DNA from: a virus | Direction: 5' to 3' (one strand) | DNA length: 55,215 nucleotides | Virus record (IMG/VR): IMGVR_UViG_3300002098_000007 | Span: 1 to 55,215 of that record | Shown here: in pieces, positions 15,727 to 55,215 of the stretch | Layout: every line of letters begins with the position of its first letter | Position numbering within the stretch: the first letter of the stretch is position 1 | Translations under genes and position numbers: made by a program | Notes under the pieces: model-generated | The model's input: only the letters and a program-made list of their open reading frames with translations | The model's database searches: none | Told to the model about the DNA's origin: nothing

Positions 15727-16146
15727 ATGAAGTTCAACCCCGGCCAGCCGCACGGCACAATTGTGGGCCACGAGTGGGCCCGCTACGAGCAAAACGGCAT
15801 CCTCTACGACGGCGCGGGGTTGATCCCCGAGGCCGCCGCGGCAATAGACAAAGCCGCCGCGAAACCAGCTAAAAACGCGCCAGCGAGCAAAACAAAAACA
15901 GAAGCCAAGGCCGAGCCCAAGGCCCCCGCTCCGCAGGACGATTTGAAGCTAAAAAACGCCACCGAGTTCTTGACTAATTTGCTCTCCGGCGGGCCAATCG
16001 ACAAATCCGTTGTGTTCAAAGAGTCGGACAGCAACTGCCAAGACTGGGGCACCGTGAAGGCCGCCTTTGCGCAGATGAACGGGGTGAGCTTCAAGCGCGG
16101 GCAGTCTGAAATCTGGCGCCTGAACCCTGAGGAGGTTCAGCAATGA
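15727..16146 (+). CDS. Hypothetical protein
   Basis: 139 aa with a GGAGA RBS and a central Ala/Lys/Pro-rich linker. Confidence 0.55.
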   Translation: MKFNPGQPHGTIVGHEWARYEQNGILYDGAGLIPEAAAAIDKAAAKPAKNAPASKTKTEAKAEPKAPAPQDDLKLKNATEFLTNLLSGGPIDKSVVFKESDSNCQDWGTVKAAFAQMNGVSFKRGQSEIWRLNPEEVQQ

Positions 16147-37827: not shown

Positions 37828-38011
37828 CGCCCGCTATGCACTTGTGTTTGTACTCAGCCTGTTCGGGTGTCAGCGCTCTCACTTCTTTGCGGCACGCTGT
37901 ACACTTGTAAGAGCTCGTGCCGTCGGTGTAACACGCTTCCCATGTCCACCGGGCGTTGCCGGGAATGATAGGAAAAGCTGTGGCGGGATCTTTGTAGTCT
38001 GCAGGGTTCAT
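37808..38011 (-). CDS. Small Cys-containing hypothetical protein
   Basis: 67 aa, last gene of the minus arm, with ATGA overlap onto the upstream gene. Confidence 0.5.
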   Translation of the reverse strand: MNPADYKDPATAFPIIPGNARWTWEACYTDGTSSYKCTACRKEVRALTPEQAEYKHKCIAGENDRRP

Positions 38012-38556
38012 GCTATATGATATCCTAAGCGTGAGATTTCTTCATTCAGATTGAGCAGGTATTTACCCTGCCAGAGCGCATCGGCCAACGCATCGTGGGC
38101 CATTCCGTTTTCTGCAGGTTTTAACTTACCGAGTGGGTCAAAAGTCTTATATAGCGTCATAAGGTCGCGCTCATAATTGTAAAGCCACGGCTTTTCACCG
38201 TTCCAAAGTGAGGTTAGAATCGGCAGGTCAAACATCGCGGGCGAACCCCATACGGTGATATCCGGGTGCGCGTCAACAATTATTTTCAAAGCGTAAAACA
38301 AGTCAATCGCGGGTATACGTCCGTCTTCTTTGAAAACCCCCTCAGCCACTTTGCGGTCTTGACGCATCCACCAACAAAGCGTGCCCCAGTCGATGTGTTG
38401 TTTTTCGGGGTTCACTTCAATTAAATGATTGAAATTCCATTTCTCATCAATAAACCGCCCGTCAAGATTGATTACGCAACCACCCACCTGCGTAACTGCC
38501 GAGTCGGGGCGCAGCCCTAGGGTCTCAATATCCAACATCAAAGCGTAATTTGTCAT
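38008..38556 (-). CDS. DEDDh 3'-5' exonuclease (DnaQ / Rv2179c-like)
   Basis: ATG 38556 follows GGAGGA and overlaps the upstream stop (ATGA). Motifs seen: MLDIETLG, MFDLPIL, HDALADA. The ORF-track N-terminal extension overlaps the RuvC-like gene. Confidence 0.75.
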   Translation of the reverse strand: MTNYALMLDIETLGLRPDSAVTQVGGCVINLDGRFIDEKWNFNHLIEVNPEKQHIDWGTLCWWMRQDRKVAEGVFKEDGRIPAIDLFYALKIIVDAHPDITVWGSPAMFDLPILTSLWNGEKPWLYNYERDLMTLYKTFDPLGKLKPAENGMAHDALADALWQGKYLLNLNEEISRLGYHIA

Positions 38557-39023
38557 TTCATTCCTCCGTATAAACCGATTAAAGCCGCGTCCGCTAGCGC
38601 CTGCCCGTTGCCTTTTTTGTCTAGGTCGCGCCACTCGGGCCAGAGCTGAACGGCTCGCGTGCGCGCAGCGTCTTTGTCCTGACCCATTAACCCTGCGCGC
38701 TTTTTCCAAGCCCGCGGGGTGACCATTGTAACGGGTATCCGCAGCGCGCCGAGCACGCCTGAGACCGTTCCGCAGGAGTGCCCAAAGTTGAACATGCCCG
38801 ACACCCCTTGTCCGGGCATCGCACCCACCTGCTCAAGATAGGCGTCGTACATGTAAAGCTCAGGGTTAAACAGGCTAGCTAACGCGGCGGCGTTAACTCG
38901 CGTGGCTGAACCGACTTTTAGGGTCGGCATCAGCATCCACTCGATAGGCTTACCCCCGTCAAGGAAGACTATCGCCCCCGAGGCGCCGGGGTCTATTCCG
39001 ACGGTCATTTTTATATCACTCAT
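38553..39023 (-). CDS. RuvC-like Holliday junction resolvase
   Basis: GIDPGASGA and LEQV...SGMFNFGHSCG...VTPRAWKK are typical of the phage RuvC family. Its start overlaps the upstream stop (TGATG), with a GAGG RBS. Confidence 0.7.
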   Translation of the reverse strand: MSDIKMTVGIDPGASGAIVFLDGGKPIEWMLMPTLKVGSATRVNAAALASLFNPELYMYDAYLEQVGAMPGQGVSGMFNFGHSCGTVSGVLGALRIPVTMVTPRAWKKRAGLMGQDKDAARTRAVQLWPEWRDLDKKGNGQALADAALIGLYGGMK

Positions 39024-39859
39024 CAAAGCACCTCGTAATGTTGACATGCCGCTTTTTGTTCATCAAGGGAAAGCGGAATACCCTTCAAATTACAAGTCCA
39101 GCTACCGTTCTCTGTCGGCTCAGAGTTACGGCATGATCGACATGTGCGTAGCGGAGCAGCCCGCCCAGTGCACACCTCTTTCATGTCGCAGTACTTGCAG
39201 CCGAAAGCCTCGCCATCGTCGCTTATTCCCGCGGGGCGCAGCCTTGCGTCTACGAGCTTGACTACCCGTTTCAGCATTTCCTCAACATGCGGCTTGTCTG
39301 GGTGAAGACGCTCCACGTAGTACTTCTCGTCGTCTTTGCAGATAGCCGCGTAGAGCCCACGCTCAAAGCCCCCGAGCGCCATCCCCATCTGCGTCTGCGT
39401 GTAGTGCTCGGGTTTGACCTCGAGCACTTTCTTTTTGGCAAACCCGCTAAAGCTGTTCTTGTTGTGGCTCTTGGCCTCAAACAGGTGCGCCTTGCTGCTG
39501 CCCGGAACGCCCGTGACCACGCCGTCCACCTTGGCCACTAAGTGCCCCGTGGGGTCGGTAAAAGCGTATTGGTTGCCCTCGGCGTCCTCGCTAAACACCT
39601 GCAGACCTGCGGAGCGCAAGTCCTGGATGATGCGTTCTTCCTGCCGGTGGCCAGTTTCAAAAAGCCTCAGCATGCGCCCCTCAAAGCTCGGGCGGGCATA
39701 GGCTCGCCAGTCTAGCCATATCATTCTCAAACACTCTTTGCCGATGAACGACGCACCTAGTCGACCTAGGTAGAGCCCGCGCTCTTGCTCCTTGGCTTCA
39801 TACGTGGCGTACACGCGGTTGATGATTTCCTGCTCGGCGTCTGGTGGTATCGCTGCCAT
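39023..39859 (-). CDS. PD-(D/E)XK nuclease, Cas4/RecB-like, with a 4Fe-4S-type cysteine pattern
   Basis: 278 aa. It has VDGVV...LFEAKS (D...ExK). One N-terminal Cys (GKEC) plus CKYCDMKEVC (CX2CX5C) gives the Fe-S pattern. An extra C-terminal CRSC...C...C segment follows. Confidence 0.7.
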   Translation of the reverse strand: MAAIPPDAEQEIINRVYATYEAKEQERGLYLGRLGASFIGKECLRMIWLDWRAYARPSFEGRMLRLFETGHRQEERIIQDLRSAGLQVFSEDAEGNQYAFTDPTGHLVAKVDGVVTGVPGSSKAHLFEAKSHNKNSFSGFAKKKVLEVKPEHYTQTQMGMALGGFERGLYAAICKDDEKYYVERLHPDKPHVEEMLKRVVKLVDARLRPAGISDDGEAFGCKYCDMKEVCTGRAAPLRTCRSCRNSEPTENGSWTCNLKGIPLSLDEQKAACQHYEVL

Positions 39860-40032
39860 CGTTATGTCCTTTGAGTTATACGTTAAGAATTGACCCGTTT
39901 CTGAATTCCGCGTCCCCTGTTCTATGAACCCGTCGTTCGCACAGGCCCCGCCCCCAGAGTTTCGTTCACATTCAGACTTTTTGCCGAGTGGGTCAAGCTC
40001 AGATGAAAGGTCGGGGCGGGCTTTTAGTTAGC

Positions 40033-40530
40033 TTAATCCCAGGGGTTGCCGGACTTGGCAGGAGCGGCAGCAGTCTTGGCGGGGGAGGGCTTAGCCGCGG
40101 GCTTTACCGCGCCCTTAACCTCAGGCAACAAGTAGCCCGTAATCTTGTTACGGTCACCGTAGCCGTTTTGCCCCTTTTCAAGTCCTAGCGTGCAGCTAAA
40201 CTGCACATCAATCAACACGTCGGTGTCATCAGCGTTAGGCTTGCCACATGCGGTGGCCCAGTCCTTCAACTGCGCGCGCCCAATTTGCTGAGCTTTCTCG
40301 CTCGGGTTGTTAATGTTGTAATTGTTCCACACTTTGCGGCCTGCGTGCTCGCCGCGAACGACTTCAAAAGTCGCTGCAATAAAGCTACCGGTGCCCGCTT
40401 TTGTGGGCTTTTCAACTGCCTCGGTTGCCTTCAAGACGTAATCGCCATCGGGCAGGGGCTCGTAGCTACCTCCACCCGAGCCGCCGTTACCTGCTTCTAC
40501 TTCACCGAGATCAAATCCAAATTTAGCCAT
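40033..40530 (-). CDS. DUF669-family protein (phage ssDNA-binding type)
   Basis: 165 aa. PLPDGDYVLK...FEVV.GEHAGRKVW..YNI and an Ala/Pro-rich tail fit the family. It is adjacent to the Sak4-like ATPase, as usual for this family. Confidence 0.6.
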   Translation of the reverse strand: MAKFGFDLGEVEAGNGGSGGGSYEPLPDGDYVLKATEAVEKPTKAGTGSFIAATFEVVRGEHAGRKVWNNYNINNPSEKAQQIGRAQLKDWATACGKPNADDTDVLIDVQFSCTLGLEKGQNGYGDRNKITGYLLPEVKGAVKPAAKPSPAKTAAAPAKSGNPWD

Positions 40531-40560
40531 GTTATATACTCCTGTTTGTGTTGAAAATGT

Positions 40561-41301
40561 TTATTCCGCAATGGGAATGAGTTTCTTGAAGTTCTCAATC
40601 GTCATCTCAGCCGTATCGGGACATGAGTAACGGTTCTTAGCCGCGTACGCAGCGTTCTCCACGAAGTGCAGCAGCCGCTCGCCGGTGCTAGCGCCGCGGG
40701 TGACTTCCTTGTTGAACCCGGCGTCCGCTTTCTTGATGATGACTTTGAAGGCGCAGAACGCCAACACGTCTGCCCATTCCTGCAGCAACGCATTGCAGCG
40801 GTTAGGCAGCTTAGGTGTATAGCGGTCGTAGGGGTCAGTGCGGGGGTCTTCAAACTTCACTACCGAGGCGTGAGCGATGAGCACTACGTTCATATTGCGG
40901 CGAGTGCGTAGGGCGTCTAGGCCCTGCAAGATCTCACGGAACTCTTCAGCTACGTACATTTGGCCCTTGCCGTAGCTTTGTTGTTTCTCGTCGTACTGTT
41001 CGTCTACGCTAGCAGTTATTAAAGGCTCAATTAACCAATCGACCGAGTCTACAACCACGGTGCGGAAGTCGTGTTCCTCCTTGAGCAGGGTTTTGATCGA
41101 TTCGACCACATCCGTGAGCTTTTGCGCCTTGGGAAAGCTCGTCACGTCTAGCGAATCGATGCCGTCCTCCGTGCTGATGAAGATTGGCGCGGGAAACTGA
41201 CTAGCCAGCGTGGACTTGCCGATTCCGTGCCCTCCGTACAAACAGATTCGCGGGGGAACCTGCTGCGGGCCGACCCGCAAAGTATCTTTCCAATTTGACA
41301 T
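40561..41301 (-). CDS. Sak4-like / AAA_24 RecA-fold ATPase (recombination mediator)
   Basis: 246 aa. Walker A LYGGHGIGKSTLA, Walker B VVVDSV. Confidence 0.7.
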   Translation of the reverse strand: MSNWKDTLRVGPQQVPPRICLYGGHGIGKSTLASQFPAPIFISTEDGIDSLDVTSFPKAQKLTDVVESIKTLLKEEHDFRTVVVDSVDWLIEPLITASVDEQYDEKQQSYGKGQMYVAEEFREILQGLDALRTRRNMNVVLIAHASVVKFEDPRTDPYDRYTPKLPNRCNALLQEWADVLAFCAFKVIIKKADAGFNKEVTRGASTGERLLHFVENAAYAAKNRYSCPDTAEMTIENFKKLIPIAE

Positions 41302-41332
41302 GATTTGTTTTCCTTTCTTGGTTAGAGGCGGT

Positions 41333-41680
41333 TCAGTCTTCCGCCGTTAAAAACTCGTTCAGCTCAGCCGCGTCAAAGTCCCAGCGCTGAGGCACGTATT
41401 TGAAGTCCACTTTGTCCCACTTCAACACGTCCACCAGGCCGTGCTTTTCGGCAATCGCAATCATAGCTATACCGCAGAGCGTAGGGTCGCCGCTGATGAG
41501 CAAATAATCGCCCGGAACCCATTCGCCGAGCACCTTGCGAGCGTGAACAATCATCCGGGGGGTGTTATAGTTCCGCGCCACGTTGCCAAAGACATCCCGC
41601 AACGCGCCGTAACGCTCCGCGTCGGAGTAATTCTTGCGGCTGTCGTTATGCACGATGAACACTATACGTTCGTTATTCAT
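41333..41680 (-). CDS. Hypothetical protein
   Basis: 115 aa, overlapping the polymerase gene end by 8 nt. Confidence 0.55.
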   Translation of the reverse strand: MNNERIVFIVHNDSRKNYSDAERYGALRDVFGNVARNYNTPRMIVHARKVLGEWVPGDYLLISGDPTLCGIAMIAIAEKHGLVDVLKWDKVDFKYVPQRWDFDAAELNEFLTAED

Positions 41681-43511
41681 CTTTCTTTTTCCTCTTAGTT
41701 TTCTTTACTTCTACCCGGGCGAGTAGCTCGGGTGTTAAATACTCGGCGCAGCCGATGTCGCAGGAAATCTTAACCGCCTCGGTAATATACCACTCGTAGT
41801 CCAGGTCGGCGGGGTGCTCGCCCTGCGGGTCAATAGTCATACACGCGCGGGCGCCGTCAGACTTAGGCACCTTGTTGCCGTTAGTCTTGTACCGGATAGG
41901 CTCCAGCGCGGGATCATTGCTCTGATACCACCGCACCACCTTGCCCAGGTAGTTACCCATCTGCTCACCACCGCCGGTCACGTTCCGCGCACTTATAAAG
42001 TCCACAAATGGCGCGTTTTTAATGGTTTCAGCAAACGCCGTACCCCGGGCCAGCCACTGGCCTACAGCAGCCGCACAAACTCCCGCGGTGGCGTTCTTTT
42101 TTAGGCTCAGAGGGGCATAAATACCCTTCTCTTTAAGCGAGCGGTCAGGCTTCACCGCGATGTAGTTATTTACGTCCTTCATCGCCAACGCGCGGTAAGG
42201 CGTGAACTCAAAACGCAGCCCGGTGTGGAGCTCAAAAGCCTTTACGACGTTCTTCACCGTTTCTTCAATCTTACGGGGATAGCCTACTGCAATACCGTCA
42301 GTGTTCGCGCTTAAGGTTACGGCCTCAACCTGCTCAAGTCGCTCAATCAACATGAGCAGCGTGAACTGCCCAGTGAGCGTTACGGCGAGCATGAACTCCG
42401 GCGCGTACAGCACCGAGTATTTGCTAGCGAGCTTGCCGAACGTGCCGTTGAGCGAAATCTTCAACGTCTCATTGGTAGCCTTGTCGCCCGTGCGCTTGGC
42501 CTCGATTCGTTTGTCGTAGATCTTGCGGTATTCGTCCAGGAACTTCGACCCCACGGCCTCTGGGTACATACCGGCGAGCAAAATGAGTGAGGGGTAGAAC
42601 GACTCGGCGTCGATGTCGCATATGACATAATCCTCCCCCGCGACGTGACATACCTTACGGTCATGCGCGCTATGAATACCCCCCACGCCGAGCTGATAAA
42701 CACCGCCGTTAAACCCGACGAGCTCTTCCCCCAGGAAGTCCGGCAGTATGACGTGTCCGCTGAGCGGATTCATACGGAACGTGTGCTCGCTCACCCGTTT
42801 GAGCAGCGCACGCAGGTACTCGTTATTAAAGCACAAGAACCCGGGTGGAGCATAGCGAATGGTCTTAGGCACGGGAACATCTTGTCGCTTCAACTTGAGC
42901 GTGGCAATGTACGCCGCCTCTGCCATCTGCGAGTCCGACTTGCTACGCATGTCCACCCCATAACGGCGACTCATATCCACGCGGAGCAGCAGCTCTGAGT
43001 CTAAACGACGTAGCAGCTCTTCAGTCGTGTCTAGGTCGTTCCAGTTGTACTCGTCAATCTGCTGCTTCTGTTCATCGTTGACCTCGGCGTCATGCGCCAA
43101 CGGCATGTCCTGCAACTTGGGCATGTGCATTCGCGCGCCGTAGGCTTTTAAACCTACAAACGAGGGCGCAACTTCAATCAAGTCGATTGAGTCAAACGGC
43201 ACAGGCGCTAAGTTGAACTGTCGGCGCGCAACCCAGGGTTTTAAACGCCGCACGATGAGCGCATCCGCAATGCGTTTGATTTCTAGCTCAGTCCGCCCTG
43301 CGCAGAACGCATCAACAATCACATCGTCAAAAGAATGATTATTGAATCCGACAAAAGTGGTGTCCGGTTGGAGCATGAACTCACGCAGGCGTGCCGGGGC
43401 GTCAGGCTCATTGCGGCGAAACTGCTTACGGCGGCCTGAGTCGACATCCTTAAACCCGACCACTGTGTAATTGGGCAGGGTCTCAAAATCGAATACAAGG
43501 GTAGGCATCAA
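41673..43511 (-). CDS. Family B DNA polymerase with a 3'-5' exonuclease domain
   Basis: 612 aa. Exo motifs: FDFET, NHSFDD, YNWND. Pol motifs: A DIDAESFYPSLI, B KISLNGTFGKL, C SANTDGIAV. Confidence 0.8.
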   Translation of the reverse strand: MMPTLVFDFETLPNYTVVGFKDVDSGRRKQFRRNEPDAPARLREFMLQPDTTFVGFNNHSFDDVIVDAFCAGRTELEIKRIADALIVRRLKPWVARRQFNLAPVPFDSIDLIEVAPSFVGLKAYGARMHMPKLQDMPLAHDAEVNDEQKQQIDEYNWNDLDTTEELLRRLDSELLLRVDMSRRYGVDMRSKSDSQMAEAAYIATLKLKRQDVPVPKTIRYAPPGFLCFNNEYLRALLKRVSEHTFRMNPLSGHVILPDFLGEELVGFNGGVYQLGVGGIHSAHDRKVCHVAGEDYVICDIDAESFYPSLILLAGMYPEAVGSKFLDEYRKIYDKRIEAKRTGDKATNETLKISLNGTFGKLASKYSVLYAPEFMLAVTLTGQFTLLMLIERLEQVEAVTLSANTDGIAVGYPRKIEETVKNVVKAFELHTGLRFEFTPYRALAMKDVNNYIAVKPDRSLKEKGIYAPLSLKKNATAGVCAAAVGQWLARGTAFAETIKNAPFVDFISARNVTGGGEQMGNYLGKVVRWYQSNDPALEPIRYKTNGNKVPKSDGARACMTIDPQGEHPADLDYEWYITEAVKISCDIGCAEYLTPELLARVEVKKTKRKKKDE

Positions 43512-43762
43512 CGATCCTGATTCACGTAACTTGAAGTGGGTTCTTCGCCGTTGTCAAGAATCTTGTTCTGAACCTCGATATATTTCTCCAAGAAATGCAA
43601 CGCCTTCTGCAGGTCGGTAATACCGTTCTTCTTTTTCCAGCGAGTGACGTACTTGGTGATTTGAGCCTGGAAATAGTCAAGATCATTAGCCAGCACGTAG
43701 TCCCAGTGCTGAATGCTAGATTTATAGTGCGAGCCGCCCACTTGTTTGTCATTTGCTTTCAT
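43508..43762 (-). CDS. DUF3310-family protein
   Basis: VGGSHYKSSIQHWDY...ITKYVTRWKKKNGITDLQKALHFLEKY. ATG 43762 was chosen because the ORF-track start at 43780 is TTG. Confidence 0.6.
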   Translation of the reverse strand: MKANDKQVGGSHYKSSIQHWDYVLANDLDYFQAQITKYVTRWKKKNGITDLQKALHFLEKYIEVQNKILDNGEEPTSSYVNQDR

Positions 43763-44252
43763 TTGCGTACATTTCCCCAATCAGTTTAAACAGTTTGTAT
43801 TCTTTGTGCACGGGCATCATGTCCCATGCGTAGGACATATACCGATGATACACATCGGCCATTTTGTGGTTGCCGAGCTGAATTTCACGAATGCAGAACA
43901 GCGCGCCATGGGCAATGTCGGCTAGTTTCAGAGTGCGATATTCCCAGTCTTCCAGGTCAGGTAACGGGAAACCGCCGTCCTTCAGCAGGGACTCCTCAAC
44001 ACGGCTGACTTGATCACCGATGCCGTAGAGACGTTTTGCGGGAGAGGGAATGTCGCCGGTTTTTTGCTCAGCCAGGTCATGAACCAGCGCGGCGGTTAGT
44101 AATTCAGCGGTGGCGTCTGGAACCATGAGTAGGCATAACAACGCAACACCGTGAGAGTGATGCCCCACGGTGTCCGCGGCTAGTGTGCGTACGGTATGAT
44201 ATCGGCGGACATCCGACCCGTTGAGCATAAATTCCAAGTTTGAAAGGTTCAC
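43749..44252 (-). CDS. HD-domain phosphohydrolase, YfbR-like 5'-deoxynucleotidase
   Basis: 167 aa with a GTG start after GGAGA. Motifs: RYHT...TVGHHSHGVA, VHDLAEQKTGDIPSPAK, KLADI. Confidence 0.75.
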   Translation of the reverse strand: MNLSNLEFMLNGSDVRRYHTVRTLAADTVGHHSHGVALLCLLMVPDATAELLTAALVHDLAEQKTGDIPSPAKRLYGIGDQVSRVEESLLKDGGFPLPDLEDWEYRTLKLADIAHGALFCIREIQLGNHKMADVYHRYMSYAWDMMPVHKEYKLFKLIGEMYANESK

Positions 44253-44291
44253 TTCAGTTCTCCAGTTATACAGTTAAAAAGCTATGCTGCG

Positions 44292-44325
44292 AATTTTAGC
44301 CCTGTTTTTACGCAGGGCTAAAATT
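44292..44325. other. Perfect 13-bp inverted repeat (aattttagccctg / cagggctaaaatt) forming a stem-loop
   Basis: Stem 44292-44304 / 44313-44325 with an 8-nt loop. It lies in the 72-nt gap between the ThyA-like and HD genes, and the right arm abuts the ThyA-like stop codon. Confidence 0.8.
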
Positions 44326-45311
44326 TATTTTTCTGCCAGTGCGAGCTCCCGGCGATGAATCCAATCGTTAGCGGCGCGGCGAATGTCTTCATGAGTGATT
44401 TTGGCAGCCCAAGCGGAACCGTCACCGGCTTTAGTCTTACGGGTGTGGCTGATCATAGCGAGGGGGTAGGCCACGTTGGTGAAGAACGGGTGAGAGTAAC
44501 GGCGGATTTTAATCGGATCATCGCAGAACAACTCACACTCTTCAAGAAACGTGCGGTAGCTACCCGCACCGAGTATAGGCGCCGGGCGCACCAGGCACGC
44601 TGAATACAAGTCGTAGTCCTCGGCCACCGGGGGGTTCTCAATATACTTAGTCGCTGAGTACAACTCAGTATACAAGTGCAGGTTGGTACTGAAGGTGCGG
44701 TACACCCCCAAGTTGACACACACCGCGGAGGCTACAAACTCCTGCACAACGCTGAAGTGAACGATATTAGCCCCGGCGTAACCCCACCACGCATCGTTGC
44801 TACGGTTAATCACCGTCATGTTGAGCTTTTCGTTCTGAATTTCAAAGATGAGCTGCATGTTGCAGGCTTTGTCTTTAGTGTTTTTGGTCAAATCTTCCGG
44901 GGCCCACATCTGCACCACGGCCTGGCGGGTGTCGTGGTTCTTGCGCAGTTGTTGAATGACCTCAATCAACTGATCGTTTCCAAAGTGATGACGCCAGCGG
45001 TAACCATAGGCAGCGTTAAAAATCTTCCCGTTGTCCGAGTACGCCCCAATCTTGCTGTTGAAGCGCTTCAAAAACGCGACGTCGCGCCGCCCGGCGAGCA
45101 TCCAAATCGGCTCCAACATGTGGAAAATGGGGTTAGCGTCTCGCCCATGGTGAAACAAGATACGCTCCTGAGGATACTTTACAGTTGTCATTACAGGCTC
45201 GGGGATGCGCAGGGCAGGGCCATTGCGCGTTTCAACCGGAATGCCAGAGGTCTTCAAACGCCAGAACATATCTTGAAACATTGTATTTGCGTTACGTGTG
45301 GTGATTTCCAT
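44325..45311 (-). CDS. Divergent thymidylate synthase (ThyA)-family enzyme; candidate dUMP hydroxymethylase
   Basis: 328 aa. Motifs: YGYRWR, DQLIEVIQQLRKNHDTRQAVVQMW, KACNMQ (Cys nucleophile retained; PCH->ACN), RSNDAWWGYAGANIVHF, STNLHLY. A ~60-aa C-terminal extension is present. Confidence 0.7.
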   Translation of the reverse strand: MEITTRNANTMFQDMFWRLKTSGIPVETRNGPALRIPEPVMTTVKYPQERILFHHGRDANPIFHMLEPIWMLAGRRDVAFLKRFNSKIGAYSDNGKIFNAAYGYRWRHHFGNDQLIEVIQQLRKNHDTRQAVVQMWAPEDLTKNTKDKACNMQLIFEIQNEKLNMTVINRSNDAWWGYAGANIVHFSVVQEFVASAVCVNLGVYRTFSTNLHLYTELYSATKYIENPPVAEDYDLYSACLVRPAPILGAGSYRTFLEECELFCDDPIKIRRYSHPFFTNVAYPLAMISHTRKTKAGDGSAWAAKITHEDIRRAANDWIHRRELALAEK

Positions 45312-45313
45312 CT

Positions 45314-46171
45314 TCAGAACTCCGTCTCAGGTTTGTAAAGTGTTCTAGGGGCGCCTTCGTTAAAGATCACCTTGCAGTATTTACTATACTCGCAAAGGCA
45401 ATTCTGTACGTCATGTAGTGTCAGGTCGGTTATACTCAACTTGTCAACGATTTCAGCCCTTATTTTGATGAGCGCCGCGTTGAATGAGTCTTGATTCCAC
45501 GTGTGATACGGCTTGAACCCGTAGACGTAATTCAGCCCGCGTTGGCTACCGGGGCCTAAGGGCGCAAAGGTATGCAAGTCCGGCGCCCGGCCCAGTTGCC
45601 GCCGCATATAGGTCAAATCTGCTGCGACCTGCCCCGCGATGAAGGTGCTGACGCCGAAACACTTAGACATTTCATGCACAAAGCCCTCAATTCGACCGGC
45701 GCGCAGCGCCATACGGATGAGCGGGGCGCGCTTAATCACGTCGCTAATTATGTGCTCACACATAGCCTCAGCTTTACCGCGGCCCTTGTTCTTTGTCGGA
45801 AAGACCATATACGCGCCCGAATAGACTTTGCCGTGTGTTTTAGCGTCCTCAACAACTTTTATGAACCCCGCAGCGTTGAAACCCTCCGCGTAGGTTGGCA
45901 ACACCTTGGCATCAATCAGCCGCTGCAGAGTCGGCGGCCAGTTGATTAACCGAGCCAGGAACAGCGTGAACCACAAGTCCGGTGCGTCAGCCTGGGGGGC
46001 GATTAGGTGATCGATGATCCACTTTGAAACCCTATCGTCTTTGCGACGGATATTAGTGAATTTGTACTTCTGTAGAACTAAGTCTTTAGTCCATGGGGCG
46101 GGCGCCCCGGCCTCGCGCTTCAAGCGAATTGACTCGCGCTCAAACACAAACTCTAACAACATGTCATTCAT
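45314..46171 (-). CDS. Candidate aGPT-Pplase-type DNA base hypermodification transferase (285 aa)
   Basis: The N-terminal ERESIRLKREAGAPAPWTKDLVLQKYKFTNIRRKDDRVS motif is recalled for alpha-glutamyl/putrescinyl thymine pyrophosphorylase-like proteins. The gene is sandwiched between the ThyA-like gene and the P-loop kinase. Not verified by search. Confidence 0.45.
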   Translation of the reverse strand: MNDMLLEFVFERESIRLKREAGAPAPWTKDLVLQKYKFTNIRRKDDRVSKWIIDHLIAPQADAPDLWFTLFLARLINWPPTLQRLIDAKVLPTYAEGFNAAGFIKVVEDAKTHGKVYSGAYMVFPTKNKGRGKAEAMCEHIISDVIKRAPLIRMALRAGRIEGFVHEMSKCFGVSTFIAGQVAADLTYMRRQLGRAPDLHTFAPLGPGSQRGLNYVYGFKPYHTWNQDSFNAALIKIRAEIVDKLSITDLTLHDVQNCLCEYSKYCKVIFNEGAPRTLYKPETEF

Positions 46172-46749
46172 TGCTCGAACTCCCAGAAGACCTGCACCAG
46201 CGAAGGATGCGGGTCGGTGTAATTGATCACGCGTACATCAAACCCCCCGGCAGCTTTCAGGTTACGGTAGCAGTTCACCACGCTTTTGAACTTGTCTACT
46301 AGGTTCACAGGGTCAAAAGGTTTAGCGTTACCCGCAGCGGCCCGGCGGCCTTTTACGCGCTCGATGCACAACTCCTCAGGGGTGTTCAAAAACGCGTACA
46401 CATCGCACCCCGTGGGGTGAATAGACTGCGTAACCGCACCCGCGAGCCCCGAGGCTGAGACAAGGGCGCCCTCGAACAAAACATGCCCCCGGGCGTGCGC
46501 CTTGTGTATACGCTCGGCAATCTCGTCCTGAGTCTTGATTGAATCCGTCCCACCGCAGACGTTGTCGTATTTGCCGACTATAAAGATCGGCTGCTGTACG
46601 AGCGCCGCGCTCGCGTCACACTTGTAACCCATGATTTTACCCGCCGAGTTGCGCAGTTCGGTAGTGGGGTATCGAGTCATGAACTCGCGCACCGCGGTGG
46701 TCTTACCCGAACCGAACGTACCGCGAACTGAGAGTATGGCTCGCCTCAT
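46168..46749 (-). CDS. P-loop kinase; candidate 5-hmdU DNA kinase
   Basis: 193 aa. Walker A RGTFGSGKTT. Small size and ATGA coupling on both sides fit the call. Confidence 0.55.
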   Translation of the reverse strand: MRRAILSVRGTFGSGKTTAVREFMTRYPTTELRNSAGKIMGYKCDASAALVQQPIFIVGKYDNVCGGTDSIKTQDEIAERIHKAHARGHVLFEGALVSASGLAGAVTQSIHPTGCDVYAFLNTPEELCIERVKGRRAAAGNAKPFDPVNLVDKFKSVVNCYRNLKAAGGFDVRVINYTDPHPSLVQVFWEFEQ

Positions 46750-46925
46750 TTCTCACCCCCGAACGCCAAGTGCAGCAACAAATACCACATCGCTAAATGT
46801 GCGGCGTCAGATCTGCCCGTTTTATTGAACACTTCCGCGTAGTGTTTGTGCCAACCGTAGTTGTCGCTGCCGAGGGGTAAATTGCTCAGCCGCTTAAGCG
46901 CATGCTGCCGTTGCTTGGGTGTCAT
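46746..46925 (-). CDS. Small hypothetical protein (59 aa)
   Basis: Not in the ORF track. It reads MTPKQRQHALKRLSNLPLGSDNYGWHKHYAEVFNKTGRSDAAHLAMWYLLLHLAFGGEK. Its stop overlaps the kinase ATG (ATGA), and it starts 3 nt after the upstream stop. Confidence 0.45.
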   Translation of the reverse strand: MTPKQRQHALKRLSNLPLGSDNYGWHKHYAEVFNKTGRSDAAHLAMWYLLLHLAFGGEK

Positions 46926-46928
46926 TTG

Positions 46929-47954
46929 TTATTCCTTTACGTTATAGCGCTCGGGCCGGTACTCACCAAGCCTGATGAGCGAACCCGTCGCGGGGAAAAT
47001 TTTAGCCTTTTCCGCAACGCTGCGGTATTTATTTTCGCACTCAGCGCGGAGCCAGTTTGGCAGCCTATCGGAGCGTATGTCTTTGAATACTTCGGTATAT
47101 TCCTGCAGGTTGCGTTCATCTGCCCATAGGATCCGCTCCCAGGCCATATCAGCGTAAACCCCAGGGTAACGACGACCGAAGAAGTGATTCTTAAACGTGC
47201 ACAAGTTGCTCTCAAGTGTGAATAGAGAGGCGCCGGTCAGCTCGGGGTGTTGAGACTTGAACAGATCGAGCCAAATGTCCGCCCCCGCGGCTAAGAAGGC
47301 ACACATCGGTTTGAAGTTATTGTATTCACCGGTCTGCCCGTTAGGTAGCCGCTTGTCCCACACGAGATCATCTTTACCGAGCAGGAACAGCATTCCGTTA
47401 CGGTGCGACTTGCTGCCCGACTTGTCCTCAAACAACAGACTGTCACAGTCCGCGCCGAACCCCTTCAGGTAGACATACTCCAAGTAGCTGAATGAGGACA
47501 ACCGTCCGAATGAGTAGTAATTCCCGCGCACCAGCGTCCAGAGCTGTGAGTACGTTTTACCGCTCAGCATTCCCTCCTGAGAGCCATGACTATCAACCAG
47601 TTCAGCGTATCTCTTTATAGCTATTACGGTTTCTTTTTTCTGATACCTGCGGTCTGTATCGAATTGCAATGTGTCCCATTCGCTGTTGAACCACTCTTCA
47701 AACTTGCTGAGTGTTGAGCCCGCGGGCGGACACTCGGGCAGGCGTTCAAACAGCCTGAGAGAGGTGATAGGGTTCTGCGTCATGCCGTTGAGGAACGCGA
47801 ACCATAACTTCTGCTCAGCGCCCCACCCGTTACGCTGCGCCAGCTCGGGCATGTACAAGTATACCAGGCCGGGCATAATCCGGTGCTCTAGGTTCATAGC
47901 GTACAAATCCGTAAAGAACTGATTTCGGTTTTCCGGCAGTCGGTAGTCAATCAT
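46929..47954 (-). CDS. Candidate second DNA-hypermodification transferase (aGPT-Pplase clade-2 / amino-acid:DNA-transferase-like), 341 aa
   Basis: A large helical protein with no motif I can place in a housekeeping family. Its position inside the kinase/ThyA/PLP cluster supports the call, but the family assignment rests on context and memory only. Confidence 0.35.
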   Translation of the reverse strand: MIDYRLPENRNQFFTDLYAMNLEHRIMPGLVYLYMPELAQRNGWGAEQKLWFAFLNGMTQNPITSLRLFERLPECPPAGSTLSKFEEWFNSEWDTLQFDTDRRYQKKETVIAIKRYAELVDSHGSQEGMLSGKTYSQLWTLVRGNYYSFGRLSSFSYLEYVYLKGFGADCDSLLFEDKSGSKSHRNGMLFLLGKDDLVWDKRLPNGQTGEYNNFKPMCAFLAAGADIWLDLFKSQHPELTGASLFTLESNLCTFKNHFFGRRYPGVYADMAWERILWADERNLQEYTEVFKDIRSDRLPNWLRAECENKYRSVAEKAKIFPATGSLIRLGEYRPERYNVKE

Positions 47955-48084
47955 TCAAACTCTCCATTATTCCAAGCGCGGCAATGTACATAAAAAGCAA
48001 CCCGACTAAAGCCACAACCCCCACCCCAAGCAGTGCGCAAAGGACAAAGACGTTAGCAACGTCTTCAAATATAACAATATTCAT
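47947..48084 (-). CDS. Small membrane protein (45 aa)
   Basis: Not in the ORF track. It reads MNIVIFEDVANVFVLCALLGVGVVALVGLLFMYIAALGIMESLND and overlaps the downstream start by 8 nt. Confidence 0.4.
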   Translation of the reverse strand: MNIVIFEDVANVFVLCALLGVGVVALVGLLFMYIAALGIMESLND

Positions 48085-48086
48085 AC

Positions 48087-48299
48087 TCACCACCTTACGT
48101 CAGATTCAAGTCTGCGATCAACCGCGAACCCGAGCGCTAAGCCGAAAACCACGGTAAAGTAACGCGCCGACCATGCCCAATCTACCGGATTACGCGACCA
48201 TTCCACAAATGCACCTAAGGCGTAAGCAAACGCTAAGGTGCTGGCAAAGGGCATAAACCAGTACAATACGTGCCCCAGGTCGGTTGCGAGTTTTTTCAT
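48087..48299 (-). CDS. Membrane protein (70 aa, two predicted TM segments)
   Basis: ATG 48299 follows GGAGA and overlaps the upstream stop (ATGA). It reads MKKLATDLGHVLYWFMPFASTLAFAYALGAFV...YFTVVFGLALGFAV. Confidence 0.5.
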   Translation of the reverse strand: MKKLATDLGHVLYWFMPFASTLAFAYALGAFVEWSRNPVDWAWSARYFTVVFGLALGFAVDRRLESDVRW

Positions 48300-48484
48300 T
48301 TCGCTTCTCCAGTTATGTTGTGATAGACCTCCACCCAGCGTACGATTTGTTCTAGGCTCTGCCATGGGCCGTAGTTCTTCTGTATAACCTGCGCGGGCAT
48401 GGGCTCAATAATTTTGGCGTCAACAATCACGCCCTCGTGGTCTCGAATCAAAGTTACCGCCTGCGCGGTTGAGGCGTTGCTCAT
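48296..48484 (-). CDS. Hypothetical protein
   Basis: 62 aa, ATGA-coupled to the PLP-enzyme gene. Confidence 0.5.
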   Translation of the reverse strand: MSNASTAQAVTLIRDHEGVIVDAKIIEPMPAQVIQKNYGPWQSLEQIVRWVEVYHNITGEAK

Positions 48485-49440
48485 ACGGGCTCCTTGTGCG
48501 TGTAGAAAGGTTCAATCACTTTAGGGTTAGGGGTCGAGCCTACAATCCAGAACCCGGCTTTGTCATCAAAATTGAGCTCATTATTTTGTCTCAAATAACG
48601 CCAAATTTTTGCCTCGTACGTGGGATGAAAATGAATACCGTCATGGCTCTCCCCTTTGAACTTGTCGCTGTACGCGCTAAACTTCATGTCGTGCAGGCTG
48701 ACATGAGACCAGTGGAAAGGGAGATGATCAATATTAACCCCCATAATCGCCATTCTCTCACGCACCCACTTGCGCTTGTCGGGGCCGATTCCGTAGGTCA
48801 TCAGAAAGTCTACATTTTTAGGGTCTCGGCTCAGGCCGAGCAGGATGCTGCAAAGCGAGTTACACGAGCCCGCGGGCGCTATCAACGTGCGGAGCTCGAG
48901 CGGCAGGTTGCGCACCTGATTGGCACCGACCTCATGAAACTTGAGCACATCCTCCGCGGGGTAGCGGTCATGCGGAACGGTGATGCCGTACTCAACCACT
49001 AGCGAGGCGGGCTTAGTCAGGTCGGCCACGCGGCGTTGAATGATCGGGTTGTACGGCCCATTTACATACTCAAAGTGCGCGCCGAACCCCGCTGCAATAC
49101 GTGGGTTCTCGTGCGTGAGCAGGGTGTGTGGCCTGCTGTAGACCACCTGCCGAGCGATGAGCCCATAGTGTGCTCCTACAATCGCGGACATGCTCAGCTG
49201 CGGGCTCTGCACACTTGCTCCGGTGAGTATGTGAGTCTTCTGCGCTCTGTATCTATTAATGTACCAGATGAGCTGGCGCATCTTGCTGCCGTTGGGGCCG
49301 CCATAGCCTAGCGGCGCAAAGTAATCCTCACGTTTGAACCAGAGCCCCTGGTGATTCTCCCACGGGGTGAACTCGCCCAGGCTCTTCTCCCAATGAACCT
49401 GAGCGCGATCAAGCGTGTGAACAGGAAAAATGCTGCTCAT
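48481..49440 (-). CDS. Fold-type II PLP-dependent enzyme (ACC deaminase / D-cysteine desulfhydrase / Trp-synthase-beta-like)
   Basis: WFKREDYFAPLGYGGPNGSKMRQLIWYI matches the KRED...GGNKxRKL lysine motif region. ATG 49440 follows GGAG. The longer ORF-track start (49596) would overlap the upstream gene by 80 nt. Confidence 0.65.
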   Translation of the reverse strand: MSSIFPVHTLDRAQVHWEKSLGEFTPWENHQGLWFKREDYFAPLGYGGPNGSKMRQLIWYINRYRAQKTHILTGASVQSPQLSMSAIVGAHYGLIARQVVYSRPHTLLTHENPRIAAGFGAHFEYVNGPYNPIIQRRVADLTKPASLVVEYGITVPHDRYPAEDVLKFHEVGANQVRNLPLELRTLIAPAGSCNSLCSILLGLSRDPKNVDFLMTYGIGPDKRKWVRERMAIMGVNIDHLPFHWSHVSLHDMKFSAYSDKFKGESHDGIHFHPTYEAKIWRYLRQNNELNFDDKAGFWIVGSTPNPKVIEPFYTHKEPV

Positions 49441-50012: not shown

Positions 50013-50591
50013 TTACTCCTTAATGCCGTGGGCGGCTTTGTACCCTGCATAAATAGGCGTTCTGCCTTCTGGCACTTCTTCGCCATATCCGTTGAAGATG
50101 TAAATGTTGTTGATGGCAAGGTCAGCGTGACCAATCAATTCCAATCGCTCATCGGTCAGCGGCTTGCGCTGTGGTGGGGTGGTGTACAAACCAACGTCAC
50201 CTTCTTCGGGTTCAAGCCCAAGGTTTACACGCCAATCTTTTGCGCCCGCATACGCATTGCTTCGCATTACCAAAAGTTCTTTGGGGCTAATCCACGCCAC
50301 GGGTTCCTGATCTGGCTCTTTGTGCAACAACTCAAACAACTCTGCAACCTGCTCGTTTGTATAAACACCAACATGTGAATCAGGAAACTTAACCCATTGT
50401 CGGTCTGTTCCTGAAATATGAATAACGCAATATTCCTCTGTCTCAAGGCATATCAACCTGTCGCCACGGCGATACTTGCGCTGTGCCAACAAATCAGCCG
50501 CCGCTTTTAATGCTTCGCTATCCCTCGGCAATGTGACTGTTGGATACTTCGCCATTTCGCGCAATGCTTTAATAATTTCTTCTGTGTTCAT
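50013..50591 (-). CDS. Accessory protein, EPVAW/LYTTPPQRKPLT/AAHGIKE paralogue family
   Basis: 192 aa. It contains DQEPVAW, LYTTPPQRKPLT and the C-terminal AAHGIKE. Confidence 0.6.
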   Translation of the reverse strand: MNTEEIIKALREMAKYPTVTLPRDSEALKAAADLLAQRKYRRGDRLICLETEEYCVIHISGTDRQWVKFPDSHVGVYTNEQVAELFELLHKEPDQEPVAWISPKELLVMRSNAYAGAKDWRVNLGLEPEEGDVGLYTTPPQRKPLTDERLELIGHADLAINNIYIFNGYGEEVPEGRTPIYAGYKAAHGIKE

Positions 50592-50594
50592 GTC

Positions 50595-50825
50595 TTACTC
50601 CTTTATGCCTTGGGCGGCTTCTCGCAGCCCTTGAAATTTAAGTTGACTGAGAGCTTCGCAGCGTTCGCAACGATGGCGCAGCGCGATTGACCCCGCGTTG
50701 TACAGATCGTTGTCGTTGCAGCTTGTGCGGTCATGCTCAGGCCACACGGCATCAATCTTTTCGCGGTCGGTCAAGTTGGTTAGCTCAGTGCTCCACCAAG
50801 TAACTTCTTTTTTCTTTTTACCCAT
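50595..50825 (-). CDS. Accessory protein ending in AAQGIKE
   Basis: 76 aa. It shares the family C-terminus and junction sequence. Confidence 0.55.
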   Translation of the reverse strand: MGKKKKEVTWWSTELTNLTDREKIDAVWPEHDRTSCNDNDLYNAGSIALRHRCERCEALSQLKFQGLREAAQGIKE

Positions 50826-50828
50826 TTC

Positions 50829-50933
50829 TTACTCCTTTATGCCGTGTGCGGCTTCGCTGGCAAAAATTTGCCAACAACGTTTGCAGATAATCCAATCACG
50901 CATTGCGGGTCTGCCGCAGTGTTCGCATTTCAT
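50829..50933 (-). CDS. Mini zinc-ribbon protein (34 aa) ending in AAHGIKE
   Basis: Not in the ORF track. It reads MKCEHCGRPAMRDWIICKRCWQIFASEAAHGIKE. Its ATG overlaps the upstream stop (ATGA), and it has the same C-terminal junction cassette. Confidence 0.45.
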   Translation of the reverse strand: MKCEHCGRPAMRDWIICKRCWQIFASEAAHGIKE

Positions 50934-51310
50934 GCTTCCCCCTTGATGCCGTGGGCTGCTTTTTCAATTGCTCGGTATTCCGCAAAACTGATGCTCAATG
51001 CAGCTTCTGCCAGTGCGTCTGTCTTAAATAACGGGCGTATTGCGGCATACATTTCATCTCTCGTAAGCGGCTTGCGCTGTGGTGGGGTGGTGTAGAGAGG
51101 CACAGTGTGCAATGGCCCGCCGTTTGTCCGCACCTTCATGTCAAAGTTTTGCAAGTCGTTTGGGTTAGCCCACGCCACAGGCTCTTGCTCTGGCTGTTCT
51201 GGAACCATCTTGGTGACGGTCACATCATTAGGTAGGTCATACGGCTGCTCAAATTCAAACCATCTTGCTTGTTCGTTCTCGCACATCCAGATTTCTTTTG
51301 GTAGTTTCAT
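50930..51310 (-). CDS. Accessory protein, EPVAW/LYTTPPQRKPLT paralogue
   Basis: 126 aa with EQEPVAW, LYTTPPQRKPLT and the C-terminal AAHGIKGEA. Confidence 0.6.
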   Translation of the reverse strand: MKLPKEIWMCENEQARWFEFEQPYDLPNDVTVTKMVPEQPEQEPVAWANPNDLQNFDMKVRTNGGPLHTVPLYTTPPQRKPLTRDEMYAAIRPLFKTDALAEAALSISFAEYRAIEKAAHGIKGEA

Positions 51311-51313
51311 GTC

Positions 51314-52147
51314 TTACTCCTTAATGCCGTGGGCCGCTTCGATGGCTCGGGCAAAGCAAACCAATTCAAAGTCAGGCGCGGCAATAGTCGGCCCGTTTTC
51401 TTCGCCATCTGGGTAATTGGCTTCAAGAATCTGCTCGTTCGTTAGTTGGTTACGGATTGGATTGTTGATGTAATGACTGCATCCTTCTTGATGTCCGTTG
51501 TACGTCAAACACTCACGGCAATAACTTGCCACAGGCTCCTGTTCTGGCTCTTTGGGTTGTGCCTTCACATAACCCCATGCAGTAGCAAGACGGGCTTGGG
51601 TTGATTTGCAATTTAAGTTTTGCTCTGGTTGTGGTGGGGTGGTGTAGAGCGCCTGAACTTCTTTAGCAATTGCCACAGCCAAGTCGCTGTCCATTGTCTT
51701 GTTTGCGTTTTCCTCGTAGCACCAGCCACGGGCAACAGCGCCAAGTAAACTTTCCCACGCCACAGGCTTTTGTTCTGGCTTGCCTATGCCAACGCCAGTC
51801 TGCACAAGTTTTATGCGCTCTAAATCGCCTTGTGCGTTCTCCATCAACTGATAGTCTGATGTGGCGTTGTATTGCTGTGCCCCGCAGTTGCACTCACCCT
51901 TTGGATACGCTGGCTCGTTGTGAACAGCGCAGTCGCTTGCGTGCAAAGTCACTTTGCAATTTGGGCATTGACACGGCTCTGGCTGTGCCAAGGCTTTTTC
52001 GATGGCGGTAATGGCAGGGCCGCAAGCGTTTGAAGCCTCCAGCACATGATGAAGCGGTGGGTCAATGTCCCAAGCCATAAGTTCTTCTGCCAGCGCAGAG
52101 TCACACTTCTTCAACGCCTCAAGCGCCAGCTTCAATGCTTCTTTCAT
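51314..52147 (-). CDS. Accessory protein, multi-module EPVAW/LYTTPPQ paralogue with Cys clusters
   Basis: 277 aa with EQKPVAW, LYTTPPQPEQ, EQEPVAS, CQCPNC...C..H...CNC and the C-terminal AAHGIKE. Confidence 0.6.
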   Translation of the reverse strand: MKEALKLALEALKKCDSALAEELMAWDIDPPLHHVLEASNACGPAITAIEKALAQPEPCQCPNCKVTLHASDCAVHNEPAYPKGECNCGAQQYNATSDYQLMENAQGDLERIKLVQTGVGIGKPEQKPVAWESLLGAVARGWCYEENANKTMDSDLAVAIAKEVQALYTTPPQPEQNLNCKSTQARLATAWGYVKAQPKEPEQEPVASYCRECLTYNGHQEGCSHYINNPIRNQLTNEQILEANYPDGEENGPTIAAPDFELVCFARAIEAAHGIKE

Positions 52148-55080: not shown

Positions 55081-55215
55081 TCAAGCCTCCACAAAAGCCA
55101 CTGCACCCGCACCCAGGGGCAACTCTCGCAGCACGCTGCCATACTGGCTAATTTGCAGGCCCAACGCACGGGCTTCGGCCAGTAGCTCTTGAGTGCTTTT
55201 ACGAGTGCGAGCAGC
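55081..55215 (-). CDS. 3' part of the gene split across the contig ends (same gene as 1..178)
   Basis: In frame to TGA at 55083-55081. Bases 55137-55215 duplicate 1-79. Confidence 0.5.
   Translation of the reverse strand, partial: AARTRKSTQELLAEARALGLQISQYGSVLRELPLGAGAVAFVEA
55137..55215. repeat. Terminal direct repeat, copy 2 (identical to 1-79)
   Basis: Exact 79-nt match to the window start, checked base by base. Confidence 0.95.

Follow-up and report, generated by a model that had tools for sequence, protein, structure and literature searches.

A predicted ViI-type thymidine hypermodification cassette on a YuA/PaMx11-type operon in an uncultivated 55-kb phage genome

Does a compact run of phage genes that seems designed for altering thymidine in DNA belong to a described pathway, or does it point to a new one? 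The question is raised by positions 43508-49440 of the IMG/VR virus record IMGVR_UViG_3300002098_000007, all 55,215 nucleotides (nt) of which were analysed and are here called the window. A sequence-only reading of this DNA had proposed a thymidine hypermodification cluster based on 5-hydroxymethyldeoxyuridine (5-hmdU), with an enzyme combination that matched no described pathway. The first part of the proposal agrees with our results, since families named after the pathway were matched (PF18748, PF18723, PF18724 and ThyA). The second part has to be given up: the enzyme classes are exactly the set by which Salmonella phage ViI makes 5-(2-aminoethoxy)methyl-deoxyuridine (5-NeOmdU). We consider that the operon probably encodes a post-replicative thymidine hypermodification pathway of the 5-hmdU/5-phosphomethyldeoxyuridine (5-PmdU) type with the ViI enzyme classes. 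By its sequence relationships the cluster is a YuA/PaMx11-type operon carrying a ViI-type cassette, because a backbone syntenic with the former is joined to an amino acid:DNA transferase (ADDT) and a pyridoxal phosphate (PLP) enzyme that match ViI alone.

All open reading frames (ORFs) listed in the sequence-only reading are present on the minus strand between 43508 and 49440 and are tightly coupled, with the family-B polymerase gene adjoining. The core genes, in their minus-strand order, are the following (lengths in amino acids, aa):

48481-49440, minus strand: fold-type-II PLP enzyme, 319 aa, homologue of ViI gp226, predicted decarboxylase of an amino-acid:thymine adduct
46929-47954, minus strand: ADDT (formerly aGPT-Pplase2), 341 aa; PF18724, E = 1e-14
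46168-46749, minus strand: P-loop 5-hmdU DNA kinase (5-HMUDK), 193 aa; PF18748 HMUDK_HMUD1, E = 7e-8, 32.7 bits against a gathering cut-off of 27
45314-46171, minus strand: HMUDK_hel (formerly aGPT-Pplase clade 1) paralogue, 285 aa, here called Pplase1; PF18723, E = 3e-43
44325-45311, minus strand: ThyA-family enzyme, 328 aa, predicted deoxyuridine monophosphate (dUMP) 5-hydroxymethylase; PF00303, E = 2e-21; phrog_5131, E = 3e-99
43749-44252, minus strand: HD YfbR-like 5'-deoxynucleotidase, 167 aa; PF12917, E = 7e-10
43508-43762/43780, minus strand: DUF3310 protein, 84 aa from the ATG (84-90 aa); PF11753, E = 3e-6; phrog_5839, E = 7e-27
41673-43508, minus strand: family-B DNA polymerase; phrog_1252, E = 6e-162; motifs DxxSxYPS, KxxxNGxFG and NTDG

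Four junctions of the cluster are ATGA overlaps (kinase/Pplase1, 59-aa ORF/kinase, 62-aa ORF/70-aa ORF and PLP enzyme/62-aa ORF), and at the others the genes overlap by 1-14 nt or stand 2-3 nt apart, with one exception: the 72 nt from the ThyA homologue to the HD gene are the only sizeable intergenic gap of the operon. The cluster is far beyond chance, with Pfam or PHROG matches for each enzyme gene and an order that recurs in 85 related metagenomic loci (at least 85 were tabulated by tblastn). The three ORFs on which the sequence-only reading depended most, those of 285 aa, 341 aa and the kinase, have proved by their profile matches not to belong to unrelated families.

Systems of this kind obtain 5-hmdU from a ThyA-family dUMP hydroxymethylase or from a TET/JBP dioxygenase. 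Here the first step depends on the ThyA homologue, and its Pfam match is to the general thymidylate synthase family. It may thus be asked whether the cluster hypermodifies DNA at all, or whether it consists of an ordinary thymidylate synthase and of proteins that are inactive or serve nucleotide metabolism. We regard this as extremely unlikely. The nearest solved protein is the cytidine monophosphate (CMP) hydroxymethylase MilA (E = 8e-18), whereas the best thymidylate synthase scores 1e-11. In the alignment with MilA the catalytic cysteine is matched and asparagine replaces the aspartate of the cytosine-specific enzyme, so that the protein fits a uracil-specific hydroxymethylase, as MilA is nearest, the cysteine is aligned and the asparagine is of the uracil type. 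In addition, the ADDT residues described below, the P-loop of the kinase and the lysine of the PLP enzyme are invariant in dozens of relatives at 60-80% identity, and invariance at such divergence argues for purifying selection on active enzymes.

For comparison with characterised systems, the genomes of ViI, YuA, PaMx11 and phiW-14 were fetched and all their proteins were compared with those of the cluster. Over the full length, the ThyA homologue is 39% identical to YuA gp17 and 38% to PaMx11 gp51. The HD protein is 33-36% identical to YuA gp18 and PaMx11 gp52, both likewise placed after the ThyA homologue, and the DUF3310 protein is 42-43% identical to PaMx11 gp53 and YuA gp20. The latter is a conserved member of the backbone, present in nearly all related loci.

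The family-B polymerase is translationally coupled to the cluster and is kept downstream of the DUF3310 gene in relatives. Its only sequence match in the PDB is Sulfolobus PolB1 (1s5j), and it is at most 40% identical to the polymerase of any deposited or cultured phage. Identities of 37-40% were seen in Pseudomonas phage 73-like phages and in Escherichia phages of about 59 kb (SLUR75, SeppeHuegi). The Escherichia phages we take to be of the Seuratvirus/Nonagvirus group, with 7-deazaguanine DNA modifications. If that grouping is true, one replication chassis carries differing DNA-modification cassettes across lineages.

The kinase has a Walker A motif GTFGSGKT and is 36% identical to PaMx11 gp49, 30% to YuA gp13 and 29% to ViI gp67. 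The product of the next gene, Pplase1, shares 33% identity with YuA gp14 and resembles PaMx11 gp50 and ViI gp160 as well; its invariant motifs are GPG..G and C-E..KY (C-E-x-x-K-Y), and the cysteine is kept in the clade of the window. The residue four positions before this cysteine is glutamine in all five clade members compared (the window, L006, L008, L013 and L015) and glutamate in YuA gp14, PaMx11 gp50 and ViI gp160, the position being equivalent to the essential glutamate of Pplase2. The clade-1 Pplase1 of phage M6 is dispensable for glycine transfer in vitro, and an accessory role in the pathway may be considered for the protein of the window. The 285-aa protein had also been regarded as one of two dissimilar candidate transferases that made the cluster unusual. 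This was rejected, as a pair of Pplase1 and Pplase2 paralogues is standard, found in three of the four founding hypermodifying phages, phiW-14, ViI and M6 (PMC5889632).

In the reaction predicted for the ADDT, an amino acid takes the place of the phosphate of 5-PmdU. Single-sequence PDB searches with the ADDT, with Pplase1 and with the PLP enzyme gave nothing meaningful; it took profiles and structure models to obtain the matches to solved proteins given below. At the level of BLAST, the ADDT is 26% identical to the serine:DNA transferase gp247 of ViI (E = 3e-24 to 7e-23), the only characterised homologue detectable among the proteins of the four phages: there was no BLAST similarity to the M6/YuA or PaMx11 counterparts, and the match to phiW-14 gp109 was not significant (E = 5.4). 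The motif E248-S249-N-L-C252 is aligned with E243-T244-x-x-C247 of PaMx11 gp46, in which they bind the metal and supply the catalytic cysteine (PMC11472151). Both ExxxC and the lysine that comes after it are invariant in 28 relatives. The AlphaFold (AF2) model of the protein has a predicted local distance difference test (pLDDT) score of 88.1, and its only real Foldseek matches are 8z2m and 8z2n, both the 5-PmdU glycinyltransferase gp46 of PaMx11 (probability 1.00, template-modelling (TM) score 0.55-0.63). A profile-profile comparison of the ADDT clade with the YuA/PaMx11 enzymes is statistically weak (E = 0.11), and around the catalytic motif it gives the same register as the MAFFT alignment. 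The mapping of the N-terminal pocket, with the equivalents of PaMx11 D24 and E92, was unreliable and was not used.

The PLP enzyme is the second protein tied to ViI. It is 33% identical to gp226 over nearly the full length (E = 2e-55 to 4e-54), and Lys53, in the motif NGSKMRQ, is aligned with gp226 Lys92 and invariant in 27 relatives. For gp226, Lee et al. proposed that Lys92 forms the internal aldimine, and 1j0a is the template they reported (PMC8989533). The protein matches phrog_3650 (8e-74) and has no Pfam match; no BLAST similarity was found to YuA gp10, gp11 and gp12 or to PaMx11 and phiW-14 counterparts. Foldseek with the AF2 model (pLDDT 83.8) returned 1j0a, an ACC (1-aminocyclopropane-1-carboxylate)-deaminase homologue, as the top match, followed by D-cysteine desulfhydrases (1j0a and 4d8t: E = 2e-11, probability 1.00, TM about 0.55-0.59), and a PDB profile search aligned the region of the PLP lysine with the desulfhydrase 4d8t. 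On this model the enzyme is a member of the ACC deaminase/D-cysteine desulfhydrase branch of the TrpB-like fold, with an N-terminal GxxK lysine. The most likely start codon of the gene is the ATG at 49440; a TTG start that extends the product to 371 aa overlaps the upstream ORF and is not the choice of the gene callers.

What the comparisons show are the families and folds of the proteins, their conserved catalytic residues, and the synteny and conservation of the genes. From these we infer every chemical step that follows and also the donor; the steps are modelled on the biochemistry of ViI and M6 (PMC8989533) and on the structures of gp46 and YuA proteins (PMC11472151, PMC13458397). The ThyA-family enzyme would convert dUMP to 5-hmdUMP, and the HD nucleotidase may deplete competing nucleotides, deoxythymidine monophosphate (dTMP) or others. 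After phosphorylation, the adjacent family-B polymerase would presumably use 5-hmdUTP to put 5-hmdU into the phage DNA, where the P-loop kinase would turn a subset of the bases into 5-PmdU. The ADDT, with Glu248 and Ser249 placed at its metal site, would then attack the flipped-out base at C6 through Cys252; the phosphate would leave, and a free amino acid would add to the exocyclic methylene by its side-chain nucleophile, most parsimoniously the hydroxyl of serine. Finally, Lys53 of the PLP enzyme would engage the free alpha-amine in a Schiff base, and the adduct would be decarboxylated to 5-NeOmdU or a close analogue. Attachment through the side chain would follow from two points taken together. 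The PLP enzyme requires a free alpha-amine, and in M6 glycine is attached via its alpha-amine, whereas in ViI serine is attached via its side chain (PMC8989533). Also, a radical S-adenosylmethionine (radical-SAM) isomerase is lacking: radical-SAM, flavin adenine dinucleotide (FAD) and acetyltransferase domains were absent from about 45 window ORFs scanned against Pfam, including every enzyme-sized ORF of the cluster. For radical-SAM enzymes this is as the sequence-only reading had stated. Together, the absent isomerase and the need for a free alpha-amine would require a donor linked as in ViI.

How far this proposal can be carried depends on the donor, and here several observations weigh against it. 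The 26% identity of the ADDT to gp247 is low enough to miss the 1e-50 network cut-off of Li et al. (PMC13458397). Moreover, positions 1 and 4 after the catalytic cysteine, which are reported to set the donor, are Thr253 and Asn256 here and Trp/Lys in ViI. Given this low identity and these differing positions, serine cannot be transferred by homology with confidence. The same two positions are Lys/Ser in YuA and Gly/His in phiW-14, and Li et al. found two such pocket residues to be cluster-specific and enough to switch the donor (PMC13458397). It is therefore possible, although we hold it to be doubtful, that serine is not the donor of the ADDT clade, which stands apart from every characterised cluster and gave no BLAST match to either the glycine or the diamine enzymes. 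Threonine, cysteine, homoserine, ornithine or lysine, for instance, would then be attached through the side chain, and the decarboxylated base would be one that has not been described. On the other side, the clade shares with ViI an FGRLS motif, a GSxSxRNG insertion and an RY motif, all three absent from the N-linking enzymes. The PLP enzyme that accompanies the ADDT belongs with gp226, and for this subfamily of transferases serine is the sole donor demonstrated. Serine, giving O-serinyl-thymidine (O-SerT) and then 5-NeOmdU, is by this analogy the most parsimonious donor.

The last step invites similar doubt. Decarboxylation is not the usual chemistry of fold-type-II PLP enzymes, which is beta-elimination or replacement. 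The decarboxylase function is predicted solely from the 33% identity to gp226, and the nearest solved folds are those of ACC deaminase and D-cysteine desulfhydrase. An enzyme that instead catalyses beta-elimination or replacement, deaminates, or makes the donor, acting on the adduct or on a free metabolite, is nevertheless unlikely in our view: gp226, which has the same 1j0a fold, was shown biochemically to decarboxylate O-SerT in DNA (PMC8989533), the two proteins align from end to end with the lysine conserved, and the gene adjoins that of the ADDT in most relatives. The proposed order of attachment and decarboxylation is further challenged by at least five loci (L059, L062, L064, L065 and L076) in which a distance of 7-8 kb from the ADDT gene takes in no PLP gene. 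These form a sister group in which the ADDT is about 68% identical and the full backbone from kinase to polymerase is kept; such phages might retain the undecarboxylated amino-acid adduct. Upstream of the ADDT gene they have an ORF of 167-171 aa without a family match and a YuA_Gp49-like protein. On the 101.8-kb contig of L065 a PLP homologue (L139) lies about 58 kb away, and this contig is perhaps a chimaera or concatemer.

Metagenomic relatives are otherwise numerous. At E<=1e-5 the ADDT retrieved 888 database clusters, the best of them 60-73% identical and many on contigs of 54-63 kb, and the PLP enzyme retrieved 612. In most of the 85 loci the core order PLP-ADDT-kinase-Pplase1-ThyA-HD-DUF3310-polymerase is kept at 45-80% identity, and the six genes from the kinase to the polymerase follow the same order wherever the flank suffices. 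The usual place of the PLP gene is 0-1.2 kb upstream of the ADDT gene; in most relatives it abuts the latter, which in turn abuts the kinase gene, with no small ORFs between them.

In the window, four small ORFs do lie there:

48296-48484, minus strand: 62-aa soluble protein, lineage-specific, no family match, no tblastn match in the related loci
48087-48299, minus strand: 70-aa protein with two hydrophobic segments, a subclade accessory gene, 59-70% identical in relatives
47947-48084, minus strand: 45-aa micro-ORF with one hydrophobic segment (peak 19-residue Kyte-Doolittle hydropathy 2.93)
46746-46925, minus strand: 59-aa protein directly upstream of the kinase, with the motif LGSDNYGWHKHYAEVFNKT, no family match, 69-78% identical in relatives

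The sequence-only reading had drawn attention to membrane micro-ORFs inside the cluster. Two of the three small ORFs between the PLP and ADDT genes are indeed hydrophobic; as members of the pathway core, however, the small membrane ORFs were ruled out by their distribution. The 70-aa and 59-aa ORFs occur in L013, L015, L028, L031, L035 and L039 (six or seven loci of one subclade), and no homologue of the 62-aa or the 45-aa ORF could be detected in the 85 loci. Since two of them recur in only 6-7 of 85 loci and the others in none, they are accessory and not core. L013 and L015 have unrelated small ORFs at the position of the 62-aa ORF and, at that of the 45-aa ORF, 35-aa ORFs with a single hydrophobic segment and no significant sequence similarity.

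Two further genes had been held up as unexplained and possibly connected with the modification:

16143-17717, plus strand: fusion of a class-I methyltransferase (MTase) and a GT9 heptosyltransferase-like domain, in the head and neck module, just upstream of the head-closure (Hc3) gene
29218-30552, plus strand: PurD-like ATP-grasp protein (GARS_A, E = 6e-14; GARS_C, E = 1.5e-8)

Both exist, and no link to DNA modification was found for either: they lie 13-27 kb away on the opposite strand in the virion and tail module. The MTase-GT9 protein may modify a virion protein. The ATP-grasp gene is located between those of a 1298-aa tail protein and a 1288-aa tail fibre with an S74 chaperone domain; its relatives are 54-88% identical on 23 IMG/VR contigs (among the matches listed), and the best match in a deposited phage is 38%, in an uncultured Caudoviricetes from Manatee Spring. 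The ORF at 17721-18677 was also tested and is not an ATP-grasp protein.

These genes, together with the small ORFs, nevertheless raise the possibility of additional tailoring and a base more elaborate than that of ViI. The small ORFs are translationally coupled in the operon, the 70-aa and 59-aa proteins are 59-78% identical within their subclade, and Lee et al. saw amidoligase-like genes near some metagenomic clusters. We find this very unlikely, as most relatives keep all the enzymes and lack the small ORFs, which are of 45-70 aa without a family match. In addition, the IMG/VR contigs with the ATP-grasp gene and those with the ADDT or PLP gene do not overlap among the matches listed, which is weak evidence.

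The remaining feature of the operon lies in the gap after the ThyA homologue:

44291-44326: perfect hairpin (stem 15 bp, loop 6 nt), beginning 1 base past the ThyA-homologue stop codon, inside the ThyA-HD gap

No T-run follows it immediately on the transcribed strand, and its function could lie in attenuation, in processing or in RNA stability.

As for the genome as a whole, positions 1-79 are repeated exactly at 55137-55215. This 79-bp direct repeat indicates a circularly closed assembly and thus a complete genome with about 55,136 bp of unique sequence. The virion module on the plus strand comprises large terminase, SU10-type portal, major head protein, tail proteins and the S74-chaperone tail fibre. 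Besides the polymerase, the replication module on the minus strand encodes an Rv2179c-type exonuclease, a Cas4-like exonuclease, DUF669, AAA_24 and Pam3_gp32-like proteins (38008-41680). Beyond the cluster, at 50013-52147 on the minus strand, four consecutive ORFs (192, 76, 126 and 277 aa) have no Pfam match and end in a nearly identical motif, A-A-H/Q-G-I-K-E; three of the four also carry internal EQEPVAW and LYTTPPQ(RKPLT). By these motifs they look like a family of tandem paralogues. Megablast against the phage collection gave no match, and there is no cultured close relative; blastn found only short patches within the thymidylate-synthase and PLP genes. The phage is known from metagenomes only, the ADDT protein being unchanged on four other metagenome contigs and the PLP protein 100% identical on one JGI/Logan contig.

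The cluster is thus a new example of the known ViI-type system in an abundant uncultivated lineage, and no new kind of biology. The 5-hmdU-derived hypermodification system was reportedly set out by Iyer in 2013 and by Lee in 2018 and 2021, and the descriptions of all the families and of the pathway logic date from 2013 to 2026. If our interpretation is true, the chemistry of ViI, side-chain attachment followed by decarboxylation, is not confined to the large Ackermannviridae, and it also travels as a compact mobile two-gene cassette on the YuA/PaMx11 operon backbone. The carriers would be abundant uncultivated phages of 54-63 kb, represented by over 800 distinct ADDT clusters and over 100 IMG/VR contigs, and the arrangement supports a modular view in which phage DNA modifications diversify by "cassette swapping". 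Such a compact operon could serve the heterologous production of modified DNA, and from the uncharacterised specificity cluster of its ADDT a new base could emerge.

In terms of enzyme content, the closest known system is that of ViI, whose 5-NeOmdU set consists of a dUMP hydroxymethylase, the 5-HMUDK proteins gp67 and gp243, the Pplase1 protein gp160, the serine:DNA transferase gp247 and the PLP decarboxylase gp226 (PMC5889632 Table 3; PMC8989533 Table 1). The window has the identical set of classes, namely hydroxymethylase, 5-HMUDK, Pplase1, Pplase2 and a gp226-type PLP enzyme, likewise with no radical-SAM enzyme; its ADDT and PLP enzyme are detectably similar solely to gp247 and gp226, with the shared PLP template 1j0a and with the catalytic cysteine, the glutamate and the PLP lysine conserved. 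The differences are the low identities (ADDT 26%, PLP enzyme 33%), the W/K residues flanking the cysteine in ViI as opposed to T/N, and the number of kinases, two in the Kuttervirus ViI and one in the window. Furthermore, the ViI genes are scattered over a 157-kb myovirus genome, while those of the window form one 6-kb operon in a genome of 55 kb, and the family-B polymerase is of a different type from that of ViI.

In terms of gene organization, the cluster resembles gp13-gp21 of YuA, which like M6 is a Pseudomonas phage, and gp49-gp55 of Pseudomonas phage PaMx11 (Mesyanzhinovviridae). The order kinase, Pplase1, ThyA homologue, HD, DUF3310, polymerase is shared, with backbone enzymes 28-43% identical, and the wider architecture is alike: Pplase2, tailoring genes, kinase, Pplase1, ThyA, HD, small proteins including DUF3310, and polymerase. 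The polymerases themselves show no BLAST similarity to that of the window, and the annotation of YuA gp21 reads putative DNA polymerase A. The tailoring genes differ as well. Compared with the 5-(2-aminoethyl)-deoxyuridine (5-NedU) system of M6/YuA, the window is without the radical-SAM isomerase, the M6 gp52-type PLP enzyme and the glycine-binding lysines, K150 and K248 of PaMx11 being aligned with Ser156 and Thr253 of the ADDT; compared with PaMx11, which makes 5-aminomethyl-deoxyuridine (5-NmdU) or its acetylated form, neither the comparison of the cluster proteins nor the Pfam scans of the window revealed a homologue of gp47 (FAD lyase) or gp48 (acetyltransferase).

The diamine:DNA transferases of Delftia phage phiW-14 and Acinetobacter phage SH-Ab 15599 have in common with the window the logic of 5-hmdU, 5-PmdU and Pplase2, with an ExxxC motif followed by lysine (PMC13458397). 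Unlike the predicted pathway of the window, they use amine donors and no PLP step, giving alpha-putrescinyl- and alpha-diaminopropanyl-thymine. A further comparison is offered by the uncultivated viral contigs in Figure 2 of the 2021 study, where 5-HMUDK, Pplase2, PLP enzyme and dUMP hydroxymethylase likewise occur together beside a polymerase. At the level of gene content and order, the architecture described here matches the pattern of permutation already reported for metaviromes.

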